Shown in pieces: positions 2,500 through 8,157 of a stretch of DNA of 16,616 nt (position 1 is its first letter; the number at the start of each line of letters is the position of its first letter). Below the pieces are notes generated by a model, which had not been told where the DNA came from, searched no databases, and was given only the letters and a program-made list of their open reading frames with translations. The stretch is from a virus: UHGV virus genome UHGV-0224311. One strand, written 5' to 3'. A program made the translations under genes and the position numbers.

Positions 2500-2534
2500 T
2501 GCTCAACCTGAAATAACAACTAAGTGAGATGAAT

Positions 2535-3023
2535 ATGGCAGCACCAAAGGGCAACCGATTTTGGGAGGCCCGCAGTAGTCATGGGCGAAATCCTAAATTC
2601 GAATCGCCTGAGGAGCTGTGGGCTGCTTGTTGTGAATACTTCGAGTGGGTTGAAGCTAACCCGCTATGGGAGATGAAGGCGTTCTCGTATCAGGGTGAAG
2701 TGATACAAGAGCCTATCGCCAAGATGCGAGCGATGACCATTACCGGCCTCACTCTGTTCATTGATGTGACGCTTGAAACATGGCGCACGTATCGCCTGCG
2801 AGAAGATTTATCTGAAGTCGTTACGCGAGCAGAGCAGGTCATCTACGACCAGAAATTCTCTGGCGCAGCCGCTGACCTTCTCAACGCTAACATCATCGCC
2901 CGTGATTTGGGCCTCAAAGAGCAGTCGCAAGTTGAAGACGTGACACCTGATAAGGGAGATCGCGATAAGCGGCGCTCTCGTATCAAGGAGCTATTCAACC
3001 GTGGAACTGGACGCGATTCTTGA
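2535..3023 (+). CDS. 3: Terminase small subunit, P22 gp3-type
   Basis: Product [47 protein letters not shown]... is recognised as P22 gp3-like at 162 aa. The ATG at 2535 is preferred over the listed 2529 because it reproduces the gp3 N-terminus. The 3' end overlaps terL by 23 nt. Confidence 0.9.
2803..2824 (+). other. pac: Candidate P22-type pac site (headful packaging initiation site) inside terS
   Basis: The sequence aagatttatctgaagtcgttac lies within terS, encoding ...[11 protein letters not shown].... From memory it matches the asymmetric ~22-bp P22 pac site that lies inside gene 3. Not verified by alignment. Confidence 0.5.
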
Positions 3024-4503
3024 TAACCTGAGCGACGAAGAGCAAATCGAATTGCTCGAGCTACTCGAAGAAGAAGAAAACTACCGGAACACACACCTGC
3101 TATATGAATTTACGCCATACAGCAAACAGCGTGAGTTCATCGACGCCGGGCATGACTATCCAGAGCGCTGTTTTATGGCTGGTAACCAGCTTGGTAAGTC
3201 ATTTACTGGTGCTGCTGAAGTCGCGTTTCACCTTACCGGGCGTTACCCGGGAACAAAAGGCTATCCGGCTGATGGTAAATATGGTGGGGAGTGGAAAGGT
3301 AAGCGTTTCTATGAGCCTGTTGTCTTCTGGATTGGCGGCGAGACAAACGAGACTGTAACCAAAACGACTCAACGCATCCTGTGCGGTCGTATCGAAGAGA
3401 ATGACGAGCCGGGCTACGGTTCCATACCGAAAGAGGACATCATTAGCTGGAAGAAGTCTCCTTTCTTTCCGAACCTTGTTGATCACCTTCTGGTTAAGCA
3501 TCACACGGCTGATGGCGTTGAAGATGGCATTTCAATCTGCTACTTCAAGCCATACTCGCAAGGCCGTGCTCGCTGGCAGGGTGACACAATCCACGGCGTG
3601 TGGTTTGACGAAGAGCCACCATACAGCATTTATGGCGAAGGTCTTACCCGTACCAACAAATACGGGCAATTCTCAATTCTGACGTTTACCCCGCTGATGG
3701 GGATGTCTGACGTTGTTACCAAGTTCCTGAAGAACCCCAGCAAGTCGCAGAAAGTGGTCAACATGACCATCTATGACGCTGAGCACTATACCGACGAGCA
3801 GAAAGAGCAAATCATCGCATCCTATCCAGAGCATGAGAGAGAGGCGCGTGCTCGCGGTATTCCTACGATGGGTAGCGGTCGAATCTTCCAGATACCGGAA
3901 GAGACGATTAAGTGTCAGCCGTTCGAGTGTCCGGATCACTTCTACGTAATTGGCGGGATGGATTTCGGATGGGATCACCCTCAGGCGCAGGTTCAGCTTT
4001 GGTGGGATAAGGACGCAGACACAATCTACGTTTCACGCGTGTGGAAGGCGAAAGAAAAAACAGCCGTTCAGGCGTGGGGAGCCGTTAAATCATGGGCGCA
4101 TAAAGTGCCAACAGCATGGCCTCATGACGGAAACCAGCATGAGAAGGGCGGCGGTGAGCAGCTCAAAGGGCAGTATGCAGACGCTGGTTTTATGATGTTG
4201 CAGGAGCATGCGACATGGCCTGATGGCGGTAATGCTGTTGAGCCTGGAATCACTGAATTGCGCGACATGATGCTTGATGGTCGCTTCAAAGTATTCAACA
4301 CCTGTGAGCCATTCTTTGAGGAGTTCCGCCTCTATCACCGTGATGAAAACGGGAAAATCGTCAAGCTTAACGACGACGTGCTATCCGCCGTTCGCTATGC
4401 ATACATGATGCGCCGCTTCGCCAAAATGATGCGCGACATCAAAAAACCAAAAGAGAAAAAGATACCAGCCCCAATCAGGCCCATCGCACGGTCAACAAGA
4501 TAG
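3001..4503 (+). CDS. 2: Terminase large subunit, P22 gp2-type
   Basis: The 500-aa product starts [37 protein letters not shown], recognised as P22 gp2. It carries an ATPase Walker A-like GNQLGKS and C-terminal nuclease-fold acidic motifs. Confidence 0.95.
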
Positions 4504-4512
4504 ATACTGTTG

Positions 4513-5013
4513 TTACGGCTTGAGAAATTCAGAGGCAGCGGAATTCAGAGCGTTAATAAATGCTACCTTATGCTTGTATGCATCTAATGCTGTAGCGAAT
4601 CCGCTTTTTGTGTATTTCTTGCCTTCTACCACAAATTGCCACATGTAGTTATTTGTGTCCTTGCGATAGGAAACTCCTTTGTATCCAGTTGAATTGTCGC
4701 AATCCATGCCACGGTTTAGTCCGTTCAACTGCTTATTGGCATCTCTAAGATTACAGATGCGGTTATCAGCACGGTTTCCGTTTATGTGATCTACTGCTTC
4801 GGGCCAGTAACCATAGTAGTGCGCAAAACAAATTCTGTGCACGTAGTACAGTTTTTTACCAAGCCTTACATCAAGGTATCCGTTTCCATGCTGGCACCCA
4901 ACGGGCTTGCCGTTAAGGTCTGTCCTCCTTGTGCGATTAGCCGCGTACAAAATTCCGGTTTCAGCATCGTATGTGAAATTTTTCCTTATATCTTCTATAG
5001 ATGGATGGCTCAC
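4513..5013 (-). CDS. Free-standing HNH homing endonuclease with C-terminal AP2-type DNA-binding domain
   Basis: Minus-strand ORF of 166 aa with a GTG start at 5013 preceded by AGGAG. It carries an HNH motif (HRICFAHYYGYWPEAVDHINGNRADNRICNLR) and an AP2-like segment (GYKGVSYRKDTNNYMWQFVVEGKKYTKSGFATALDAYKHKV). The gene is AT-rich and antisense to the operon, placed between terL and portal. Confidence 0.85.
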   Translation of the reverse strand: MSHPSIEDIRKNFTYDAETGILYAANRTRRTDLNGKPVGCQHGNGYLDVRLGKKLYYVHRICFAHYYGYWPEAVDHINGNRADNRICNLRDANKQLNGLNRGMDCDNSTGYKGVSYRKDTNNYMWQFVVEGKKYTKSGFATALDAYKHKVAFINALNSAASEFLKP

Positions 5014-5063
5014 AATAGAATCTCCTGTTGAAGTTGTCCCATTGATTTTATCACGGTAAAGTT

Positions 5064-7232
5064 ATGACTGACAACGCAGAGCGATTAAATAAGATACTGC
5101 AAGCATTCGATGTTGATTGGATGTCTTCCGACGAGGCGAGAACAGAAGCTTCTAACGATTTATACTTCAGTCGCATAAGCCAATGGGATGACTGGCTATC
5201 AAACTACACCACCCTGCAATATCGCGGACAATTCGATGTTGTTCGCCCGGTGGTCAGGAAACTGGTCGCAGAGATGCGCCGGAACCCTATCGACGTACTC
5301 TTCCGACCCAAAGACGGCGCTAATCCTGATGCTGCCGATGTGTTGATGGGAATGTATCGTACTGATATGCGCCATAACACGGCAAAGATTGCCGTTAACG
5401 TTGGCGTTCGTGAGCAGATAGAGTCCGGCGTTGGTGCATGGCGTCTGGTCACCCAGTACGAAGACAACGACCCAACAAGCAACAATCAGGTAATCCGACG
5501 CCTGCCAATCCATGAAGCCTGCTCACACGTCATATGGGACGCCAACAGCAAGCAGATGGATAAGAGCGACGCTAAGCACTGCACGGTGATTAACGCTTTG
5601 TCACGCAATGGCTGGAAAGAGTTCGCAGAGGATTACGGTATTGATCCGGACACCTTGCCATCTTTCCAGAATCCGAACGATACATGGCTGTTTCCGTGGG
5701 TATCGAATGATGTCGTCTACGTTGCTGAGTATTACGAGGTAGAAGAGAAGAAGGAGAAGGTCTTCATCTACCGCGACCCGCTGACAGGTGAGCCGGTCAG
5801 CTATTACCAGCAGGATATCAAAGACGTCATCGACGACCTGGCTAATCGTGGATTCATTAAGGTAGCAGAGCGTAAGGTCAAGCGTCGGCGTGTGTATAAG
5901 TCGATCGTCACCTGCACGCAGATACTGAAAGACCGCGAGAAGATAGCCGGAGAGCATATCCCAATCGTTCCTGTGTACGGCGAATGGTCATTCGCTGGTG
6001 ACAAGGAGTGCTACGAGGGCGTGGTAAGGCTGACGAAAGACGGTCAACGCCTTCGTAACATGATCATGTCATTCAACGCCGATATTGTTGCTCGTTCACC
6101 GAAGAAGAAACCGACCTTCTTCCCTGAGCAAATCGAAGGCTACGAATACATGTACGGTGGAAATGATGACTATCCGTACTATCTCCAGAACAGGACTGAT
6201 GAAAACGGTAACGACCTGCCGATTGGTCCAATCTCCTACATGGAAAACCCTGAAGTGCCGCAAGCCAACGCTTACATGCTTGAGGCTGCCACCAACGCAG
6301 TGAAAGAGGTGGCCAGTCTTGGCGTTGATGCGCAGGCGGCAAATGGTCAGGTCGCTTTCGATACCGTCAATCAACTGAACATGCGGGCAGACCTTGAGAC
6401 ATACGTGTTTCAGGATAACCTGGCTACCGCAATGCGACGTGATGGCGAGATTTATGCCTCAATGGTCAACGATATTTATGACGTTCCTCGTCATGTAACG
6501 CTGACACTTGAAGATGGAAGCGAGAAAGACGTTCAACTCTACGCGCAAGTTGTAGATTACCAGTCCGGTAATGTGGTCACACTCAACGACATTCGCGGTC
6601 GCTATGAGTGCTATACAGACGTTGGGCCATCCTTCCAGAGCATGAAGGAACAGAACCGCGCAGAGATTCAGGAATTGCTCACTAAGGTTCCGCAAGGTAC
6701 TCCAGAGTTCCAGATGCTGATGCTGCAATACTTCACGCTGCTTGACGGTAAAGGCGTCGAGATGATGCGAGAGTACGCTAACAAGCAACTGGTGATGATG
6801 GGGCTGAAGAAACCAGAAACACCTGAAGAGATGGAGATGGTACAGCAGGCTCAACAGCAGCCGCAGCAGCCATCAGCAGAGCAAATTCAGGCGCAGGGTA
6901 TCCTTCTGCAAGGTCAGGCTGAATTGCTCAAGGCAGAGAACCAACAGGCGCAGATTCAGGTTGAAGCCGCCAAGGTTGAAGCCCAAAACCAACTCAACGC
7001 CGCGAAGATTGCAGAAATCTTCAACAATATGGACCTCGACAAGCAGGCAGAACTGCGTGAGTACCTCAAGCTCGTAGGTCAATTACAGCAACAGCGCAGC
7101 AAAGATGCTCGTGCTAACGCTGAGCTGCTTCTTAAAGATGCAGACCAGACTCATTCACAACGCATTGATTTCGCGAATCTTATGCGTCAAGTTCAAATCC
7201 CCTCCGGCGGAGTAGCCGAGACACCTCAATAA
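5064..7232 (+). CDS. 1: Portal protein, P22 gp1-type
   Basis: The 722-aa product has conserved blocks recognised from the P22 portal ([28 protein letters not shown]; [23 protein letters not shown]; [15 protein letters not shown]). The C-terminus is a Gln-rich predicted coiled coil. Confidence 0.95.
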
Positions 7233-7245
7233 GAGAGAGTTAATC

Positions 7246-8157
7246 ATGGACCAAACCACCGACATTCAGGCTTCTGAAGAATTAACCCTGCCCGGCAATC
7301 ATGCAGCGGCATCTGCTGATGGCTTAGTTGTCGATAATGCCAACGACAGCGCAGGTCAGGAAGAAGGCTTTGAGATTGTCCTGAAAGACGATGAGAAACC
7401 AAAACAAGACCCGGCAACTAATGCTGAATTTGCCCGTCGCCGCATCGAACGCAAACGCCAGCGTGAGCTTGAGCAGCAGATGGAGGCGGTTAAGCGTGGA
7501 GAGTTGCCGGAGCACCTGCGGGTGAACCCTGAGTTACCGAAACAACCAGACCCTAACGATTATCTTTCCGAAGATGCACTGGCTAAGTACGACTATGACC
7601 AGAGCCGCGCACTGGCTGCCTTCCAGCAGGCAAACAGTGAATGGCAGATCAAGGCTATGGACGCACGAAGCCAGGCTGTCGCCGAGCAGGGGCGCAAAAC
7701 TCAGGAGTTCACCCAGCAATCAGCGCAATACGTCGAGGCAGCCCGTAAGCACTACGACGCAGCGGAAAAGCTCAATATCCCTGACTATCAGGAGAAAGAG
7801 GACGCATTCATGCAACTTGTGCCGCCAGCAGTCGGTGCCGACATCATGCGCCTCTTCCCGGAGAAATCCGCTGCTCTCATGTATCACCTTGGTGCTAATC
7901 CTGAGAAAACACGCCAGTTGCTGGCGATGGACGGGCAATCCGCGCTGATTGAACTCACTCGACTGTCAGAACGTTTAACTCTCAAGCCTCGAGCAAAGCC
8001 TGTTTCAGAAGCCCCGTTACCTGATGAACCCATTCAGGGACATGCTGTTGCTGCAAATATCTCTGCGATTGAAAAGCAGATGGAGGCGGCAGCAAACAAA
8101 GGGGATGTAGAGACGTACCGCAAGCTCAAGGCGCAACTGAATAAAGGAATTCGATAA
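7246..8157 (+). CDS. 8: Scaffolding protein, P22 gp8-type
   Basis: The 303-aa product is recognised as gp8-like ([50 protein letters not shown] ... [18 protein letters not shown]). RBS GAGAG upstream; its stop overlaps the coat start (TAATG). Confidence 0.93.

Follow-up and report, generated by a model that had tools for sequence, protein, structure and literature searches.

A probable homing endonuclease cassette with a candidate promoter of its own and a recoded portal start at the terminase-portal junction of a P22-like phage

Among the known architectures of homing endonucleases is the fusion of an HNH_3 nuclease to an AP2 domain (PMC5714182, PMC10448857). Such HNH-AP2 enzymes occur in phages, in cyanobacteria and in protists (Magnani et al. 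2004, PMC520932, as cited in PMC5714182), the 'IPA-HNH' genes of phage ICP1 are likewise HNH-AP2 homing endonucleases (PMC10448857), and an insertion at the terL-portal junction of phage SEN22 has already been published as a homing endonuclease (PMC5261728). I-HmuI, from the Bacillus phage SPO1, is an HNH nicking endonuclease encoded by a group I intron. Phage T4 encodes SegF and SegG, free-standing enzymes that act by 'intronless homing' and bring about localised marker exclusion.

Here we describe a comparable locus in a 16,616-nt stretch of viral DNA (UHGV virus genome UHGV-0224311), which was analysed as a whole and is called the window below. A preliminary description, made from the letters and a list of open reading frames, had proposed that a free-standing homing endonuclease gene was inserted at its terL-portal junction. 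We compared the gene, its protein product and its flanks with those of relatives that carry or lack it.

The nuclease gene and its product

The window covers the late region, from lysis to virion assembly, of a P22-like Lederbergvirus phage or prophage. It contains the lysis gene Rz (743-1180), the gp3-type small terminase gene terS (2529-3023), the large terminase gene terL (3001-4503, plus strand; Pfam Terminase_6N, 1.3e-47, and Terminase_6C, 3.3e-28), with its TAG stop at 4501-4503, and the portal gene (5064-7232, plus strand; Pfam P22_portal, 5.5e-161), together with genes for scaffold, coat, gp4, gp10, the tail needle, and gp7 and gp20-like ejection proteins. Between terL and portal, the listing of open reading frames places a 166-aa minus-strand gene with a GTG start (4513-5013), which leaves a spacer of 9 nt on the terL side (4504-4512) and of 50 nt on the portal side (5014-5063), and which has AGGAG as its Shine-Dalgarno sequence, 8 nt ahead of the GTG (5022-5026, minus strand; the plus strand reads CTCCT). 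The preliminary description had the gene, its GTG start, the AGGAG and both spacers right, and it was also right about the gene being AT-rich: GC is 0.425 over 4504-5063 versus 0.508 elsewhere in the window, placing this interval 16th lowest among 803 overlapping segments of 560 nt. The terL and portal ORFs are intact and separate, the nuclease gene lies outside any intron or intein, and an Rfam search of the window, group I and II introns included, found no family.

Elsewhere in the window, the plus-strand ORF at 1524-2009 (161 aa), located between the lysis genes and terS, matches the T5orf172 and MUG113 (GIY-YIG-like) domains at 4.2e-13 and 1.1e-9, and no part of the window is more AT-rich (39% GC). 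The Salmonella phages epsilon34 and g341c have the same ORF at 98% identity, under the name 'GIY-YIG nuclease family protein'; in other P22-like phages this slot holds Rha or KilA-N genes, and the ORF may be a second homing-endonuclease-like gene. The ~520 nt that separate it from terS (2010-2528) contain no ORF of at least 90 aa, and the matching region in relatives carries annotated small DUF2560 and hypothetical genes.

The HNH motif attributed to the 166-aa protein was borne out by an HMM search, in which HNH_3 (PF13392) matched aa 56-98 with E=2e-13 (50.1 bits versus a cut-off of 24.8); PHROG_99, 'HNH endonuclease', matched at 4.7e-50. The N-terminal part (aa ~1-100) comprises a beta domain and an HNH_3 His-Me finger bearing D75, H76, N88 and N97, and the protein displays a beta-beta-alpha metal-finger fold with a catalytic His and Asp/Asn metal ligands. 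When the PDB was searched with the sequence, the sole match was I-HmuI (1U3E), with the catalytic D-H...N...N positions in register (D75, H76, N88 and N97 corresponding to D74, H75, N87 and N96 of I-HmuI). Across an alignment of 76 homologues, D75, H76 and N88 are invariant and N97 nearly so. Because both fold and catalytic positions match, the protein likely shares the chemistry of I-HmuI.

The AP2 domain that had been proposed alongside the HNH motif stood up only in part. On the protein's own sequence, Pfam AP2 (PF00847) fell below the cut-off (aa 109-141; E=0.083, 13.6 versus 33.3 bits), and a profile of the close clade alone, run against the PDB, retrieved I-HmuI as its sole match and no AP2 structure. 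Of the 76 aligned homologues, 54 match Pfam AP2 individually, the close clade of the window not being among them. A profile of the whole family did retrieve AP2 crystal structures from the PDB (WRI1, 2e-9; TEM1, 3.5e-6; ERF096, 1e-3), as well as I-HmuI (7e-8), and the close-clade profile aligned with a profile of the AP2-positive homologues over 152 columns, aa 108-148 included, with 100% probability and E=7.5e-52. The C-terminal part (aa ~109-155) appears AP2-like, with three strands and a helix: an AlphaFold model (pLDDT 93.8) places strands at 114-117, 122-129 and 132-139 and a helix at 142-155, although the alignment behind the model took in AP2-positive homologues, so that this fold evidence is not independent of them. 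Profile comparison and predicted fold thus support a divergent AP2 domain whose own sequence is sub-threshold. As judged from these comparisons, the protein joins an HNH_3 nuclease of I-HmuI type to a divergent AP2 domain.

Its relatives in the databases fall into two tiers, namely nine close clusters at 66-99% identity and a large set of proteins (160-180 aa, identity no higher than 44%), the majority of which carry precomputed HNH_3 and AP2 annotations. RefSeq labels the E. coli copies 'HNH endonuclease signature motif containing protein', and an NCBIfam search gave no match. A link to a known defence system was considered and set aside, PADLOC having returned nothing beyond a weak match to its 'homing endonuclease' model (9.9e-5).

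Boundaries, recoded portal start and promoter of the cassette

To define the inserted unit, the window was compared with cassette-free relatives, as the preliminary description had suggested. Eight records from six phages (HZ41, IME10 in three records, Louie, APC_JM3.2, Dewey and CurroJimenez) lack ~566 nt at this place while being 97.6-98.8% identical to the window on both sides. In these relatives, among them IME10, HZ41 and Louie, the terL stop abuts the portal ATG, IME10 reading ...ACGGAGAACTTAAATGGCC... Identity of the window to IME10 and HZ41 stops after ...CGCACGG, at a left boundary of ~4493, so that the last three to four terL codons differ (...ARSTR* in the window versus ...ARRT* in IME10) and the interval 4493..4512 holds a new terL stop, followed by the 9 nt that separate it from the stop codon of the endonuclease. 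On the right, identity returns at 5181..5201 with the conserved CAATGGGATGACTGGCTATCA (plus strand, QWDDWLS). IME10 is thus 97.7% identical to the window over 3001-4492 and 97.1% from 5181 on, yet only ~63% over portal nt 1-117 (5064-5180), with changes that are mostly synonymous and a protein that is largely kept. A global alignment of the window with IME10 scattered this divergent tract, and the comparison was therefore made gene by gene.

A second, independent pair, SEN22 and phage L, gave a similar result: identity runs through the terL stop, the TAATGGC of the old portal start is retained, and identity returns exactly at portal nt +118, again with CAATGGGATGACTGGCTATCA. The left boundary is shifted by ~10-15 nt between the two pairs and the right boundary, at +117 of portal, is identical in both. 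Boundaries were defined in these two pairs and in a comparison of two cassette-bearing loci, L004 and L005 (see below); megablast of the L004 junction against GenBank phages for a cassette-free partner found no match, and that of the L007 junction found portal matches of ~79% identity only. Because the identity patterns agree in the two pairs, the inserted unit, as delimited by alignment, spans ~4493-5180 and is made up of the gene, the spacer of 50 nt and an alternative version of portal nt 1-117. The insertion thus does not fill precisely the gap at 4504-5063, as first proposed, but extends beyond it on both sides, taking the place of ~10 nt at the 3' end of terL and of the 117 nt with which portal begins. 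For annotators, this means that the first 39 portal codons here belong to the mobile element and not to the phage backbone. We also observed that CACGG recurs at either end of the insert, at 4488-4492 and at 5052-5056.

The recoded AT-rich portal start (5064..5180, plus strand) recurs throughout the clade. When eight diverged cassette variants were compared with 14 diverged cassette-free junctions, the attached portal tract was always exactly 117 nt long, and its GC was 0.38-0.43 in 8/8 variants versus 0.49-0.56 in the 14 cassette-free alleles, downstream portal GC being equal in both classes (~0.5). None of the eight cassette-bearing portals starts with ATGGCCGAC (Met-Ala-Asp), whereas all 14 cassette-free alleles start with Met-Ala-Asp or a close variant of it (Met-Ala-Asn or Met-Met-Ala-Asp). 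Moreover, at several third-codon positions all cassette-free alleles agree and 8/8 variants differ from them, for example in GAAGCCAGAACCGAGGCG and AGCCGGGTG; we infer these discriminating positions to be candidate recognition or immunity positions, and the 117-nt tract as a whole to be a candidate immunity tract and possibly the target region. The cassette-associated tracts cluster only weakly (mean identity 0.69 among cassette-bearing alleles versus 0.63 between classes), since synonymous sites are saturated, and the clearer features they have in common are base composition and the fixed length of 117 nt.

The preliminary description had asked how a gene lying antisense within a long late transcript could be expressed, and a promoter scan offers a candidate answer. 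On the minus strand, at 5074..5045, TTGTCA is followed after 18 nt by TGaTAAAAT (10/12 matches plus TG). The -35 element (5074-5069) is the reverse complement of portal codons 2-4, the extended -10 lies at 5053-5045, and the portal ATG falls inside the 18-nt spacer; because of this overlap, the portal start must travel with the gene. By itself the match is not above chance (two sites found, 2.2 expected). Yet nine diverged cassette variants (9/9) all keep TTG in the -35, a spacing of 18 nt, and T1, A2 and T6 in the -10, whose versions are TAAAAT, TAATAT and TAGAAT, and the TG is present in eight of the nine; the block ...TGGGA after the promoter is also conserved, and an SD-like element lies at the matching place in the other cassette variants. 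This conservation is meaningful because the coding sequence on both sides is saturated at synonymous sites. We infer a dedicated sigma-70-type promoter for the endonuclease gene, able to fire independently of the late operon. It would likely be occluded once late transcription crosses it, and the endonuclease is probably made before, or independently of, late transcription.

At the other end of the gene, the scan found a weak terminator-like hairpin of five pairs with a T-run on the minus strand (4481..4467), inside the 3' end of terL and ~30 nt downstream of the endonuclease stop; the GenBank record of phage L has a minus-strand terminator annotated at the equivalent place. One might speculate that this hairpin ends the antisense transcript. 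Another terminator-like hairpin, followed by TTTTTT, lies on the plus strand at 4835-4851, within the antisense gene, where late transcription running from terL to portal has to cross it; under late antitermination it is probably irrelevant.

The insertion also changes the surroundings of the portal start. In cassette-free phages, the terL stop and portal start codons abut or overlap, and the portal Shine-Dalgarno GGAG lies within ...CACGGAGA... in the last terL codons (L001, L031 and L112-L132); the insertion removes both the GGAG and the stop-start arrangement. Upstream of its portal ATG the window reads ...ATCACGGTAAAGTT (CACGGTAAAGTTATG), where no clear Shine-Dalgarno sequence is seen.

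Distribution, movement and constraint

The gene is rare among related phages. It occurs in 2 of 5426 complete E. coli genomes, while the terL of the window is found in 258 of them at megablast level (~200 at 95% identity or more). Among more than 115 GenBank phage records with a P22-type terL-portal region, SEN22 is the sole carrier, and in IMG/VR ~20 cassette loci stand against ~470 related portal loci. A scan of genome contigs with the close-clade alignment gave 47 pattern matches, of which tblastn confirmed none, probably because that collection holds one genome per species. All close-clade members lie antisense at the terL-portal junction, beside either a P22-type or an Sf6-type terL, two types that are ~44% identical. 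Presence is thus sporadic among near-identical genomes and always at one site, as is expected of a homing endonuclease, and the view of this junction as a recurrent landing site holds for the close clade. In its patchy distribution, foreign composition and HNH_3 plus AP2-like make-up, the gene agrees with the earlier designation as a free-standing phage homing endonuclease; neither a protein lacking HNH and AP2 matches nor a universally present gene of backbone-like composition, the two outcomes then named as speaking against it, was what we found.

Two loci illustrate transfer between terL types. L004, with an Sf6-type terL, and L005, with a P22-type terL, have ~795 nt in common with a single mismatch (binned alignment), running from the final 56 nt of terL through the gene and the spacer to portal nt 190; outside this stretch, the terL genes are unalignable and the portals ~90% identical. 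Their TerL proteins (485 and 502 aa) end in the same 18-19 residues, KEKKAPAPIRTMVGTGARR, encoded by identical DNA contiguous with the cassette, and the TerL C-terminal tail thus appears to have been transferred together with the endonuclease and the portal start. The different terL types all conserve a KEKKxPAPIR motif, which may provide the homology for recombination on the left.

A similar picture emerges within the variant carried by the window. In each of the eight loci with this variant, the terL and portal flanks are closer to a cassette-free haplotype than to other carriers; the terL of L036, for instance, is one SNP from that of the cassette-free L045 and at least 17 SNPs from that of every other carrier. 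Over these eight loci, nucleotide diversity is 0.0031 in the cassette versus 0.027 in terL and 0.021-0.032 in portal, i.e., ~8-fold below the flanks, with an abrupt change at the right boundary. Low cassette diversity and the pattern of the flanks would fit repeated homing, for which they are supportive and not decisive; the low diversity could also have arisen if the cassette was acquired once and its flanks were then exchanged with those of cassette-free phages by ordinary homologous recombination.

Homologues (163-166 aa) free of frameshifts and stops are present in more than 20 loci. Across the clade pN is ~0.2 versus a pS of ~0.8, with synonymous sites saturated, and dN/dS is 0.065 for the sole unsaturated pair. 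Being intact in this many loci with pN well below pS, 4513-5013 is not a chance ORF, and by these substitution patterns the cassette clade is old and its protein under purifying selection.

Related genes were seen in other settings. Some cassette-bearing P22-like phages contain a second HNH_3 gene (L007, 296-844, plus strand; L017, ~316-795), antisense between scaffold and coat, whose 182-aa product is ~31% identical to the window protein; the window is without this insert, its scaffold and coat abutting at 8157. Distant homologues of 156-158 aa that have the GCPHGNGYLDVR motif in common (L027, 3911-4387, 47% identity; L028, 1624-2094, 37% identity) fill the terL-portal junction co-oriented with the operon, beginning right after the terL stop and overlapping the portal start. 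Their host phages belong to a different phage group, with portals ~38% identical to that of the window, and their terL types differ (489 versus 531 aa) while ending in the same TerL C-terminal tail, ...P(R/K)PLKTMGR.

Interpretation and comparison with known homing systems

Taken together, the structure of the gene, its domains and fold, its catalytic residues, its purifying selection, the boundaries, the patchiness and the near-identical cassettes in divergent backgrounds make it very probable that 4513-5013 and the attached tract form a free-standing ('intronless') homing endonuclease cassette. Site specificity would come from the N-terminal beta domain and the C-terminal AP2-type DNA-binding domain. 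When a carrier phage or prophage meets a cassette-free relative, the enzyme would nick or cut the naive allele where the terL stop meets the portal start or close to it, possibly in the initial ~117 nt of portal. Repair by recombination with the carrier genome would then copy the gene into the naive allele, along with its putative promoter and the recoded portal 5' end. At ~63% identity, the recoded tract would be too divergent to be lost by recombination, and it presumably protects the carrier from its own enzyme. Transcription would run against the late operon from the candidate sigma-70-type promoter that straddles the portal start codon.

The preliminary description had also raised the possibility that the protein assists packaging, and its place directly beside terL would suit an accessory that works with the terminase in packaging, as HK97 gp74 does in cos cleavage, and is kept there on that account; terminase-stimulating HNH proteins are indeed known (discussed in PMC10448857). 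We nevertheless rejected this role and regard it as very improbable, given that the gene is absent from more than 95% of the phages that have this terL and portal, among them the viable isolates IME10, HZ41 and Louie, whose terL and portal are 97-99% identical to those of the window. Furthermore, the gene occurs beside unrelated terL types with no co-variation with the terminase, and its HNH_3 plus AP2 make-up is that of homing endonucleases. A packaging HNH protein of the HK97 gp74 type would be expected in all relatives, as part of the packaging module and co-oriented with the terminase genes, and the gene in the window, antisense to the packaging operon, departs from this on both counts. 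P22-like phages, for their part, use headful packaging from a pac site and not cos cleavage, which also counts against this role. Still less probable, and likewise rejected, is a decaying relic that cuts no DNA and retains at most an AP2 regulator binding DNA: the divergence of the AP2 region, sub-threshold in Pfam and without an AP2 structure among the matches of the close-clade profile, would suit it, but all catalytic positions are kept, the >20 uninterrupted loci, the dN/dS of 0.065 and the low pN relative to pS speak of continued function, and the occurrence of near-identical cassettes in distinct backgrounds points to movement in the recent past.

Two further readings leave the homing reaction in place. 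Marker exclusion is known for the T4 Seg enzymes, and the gene might have been domesticated as a nuclease that, expressed from the prophage, cuts superinfecting or co-resident P22-like phages without the recoded portal tract, gene copying being a by-product. The putative promoter, which is separate from the late operon and kept in 9/9 variants, the age of the clade and its purifying selection, which suggest long-term retention, and the faint PADLOC signal are compatible with such a use; on the other hand, a strong competitive benefit might have raised the gene above the ~1-5% of related phages in which it is found, and exclusion relies on the same cutting reaction as homing, adding a selective interpretation and not a different mechanism. 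We consider it unlikely. Somewhat less unlikely, though still doubtful, is that the cassette could both drive module swapping among P22-like phages, in which the same portal is found with unrelated terL types, and modulate portal expression. Swapping would be promoted by breaks exactly at the terL/portal boundary and by a recoded portal start that does not recombine; portal expression would be altered by the loss of the GGAG and of stop-start coupling, and by a convergent promoter across the portal start.

Read as a homing endonuclease cassette, the locus has its nearest described counterpart in SEN22_3, the 'homing endonuclease' of Salmonella phage SEN22 (KT630648 / NC_028696), a phage of the same genus. 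SEN22_3 also occupies the terL-portal junction, is antisense and encodes 166 aa, and its cassette has the same layout, with the conserved promoter block and the 117-nt recoded portal start. It differs in being ~70% identical (70.8%; ~70% in both DNA and protein, with synonymous sites saturated), in starting with ATG where the gene in the window starts with GTG, and in its host, the variant of the window being found in E. coli prophages. I-HmuI matches the protein in its N-terminal beta domain, HNH_3-type His-Me finger and D-H...N...N positions, at ~23-26% sequence identity, but it is intron-encoded where the gene in the window is free-standing, and it binds DNA through C-terminal helices and a helix-turn-helix in place of an AP2-like module. 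With the HNH-AP2 homing endonucleases the gene has in common an N-terminal HNH, a C-terminal AP2 domain, small size and a position of the kind these genes often take, beside essential phage genes including terminase; its clade is set apart by a more divergent AP2 domain and by its specificity for the P22-like terL-portal junction. The T4 SegF and SegG genes resemble the cassette in lying between two essential genes, in being inherited together with neighbouring sequence unlike the naive allele and in their patchy distribution. They encode GIY-YIG and not HNH-AP2 enzymes, and the co-inherited tract in the window differs from theirs in ending sharply at a fixed point, portal nt +117, and in carrying part of the putative endonuclease promoter.

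The annotation is in itself routine, with a homologue already published at the same site in SEN22. Its modest value lies in providing a clean natural example, with sharp boundaries, cassette-free relatives ~97-98% identical in the flanks and eight diverged variants, in which a conserved promoter and a recoded segment of an essential gene open the target site, the mechanism of immunity and the part of such nucleases in phage mosaicism to direct tests in a phage group amenable to genetics. Thus, to a gene ~70% identical to a published member, and to the established preference of HNH-AP2 enzymes for sites beside essential genes, we add the exact make-up of the cassette, with its gene, its conserved promoter and a portal start recoded over 117 nt, together with evidence of its movement at the population level, and homologues of 37-47% identity that occupy the same junction, in sense orientation, in another phage group.
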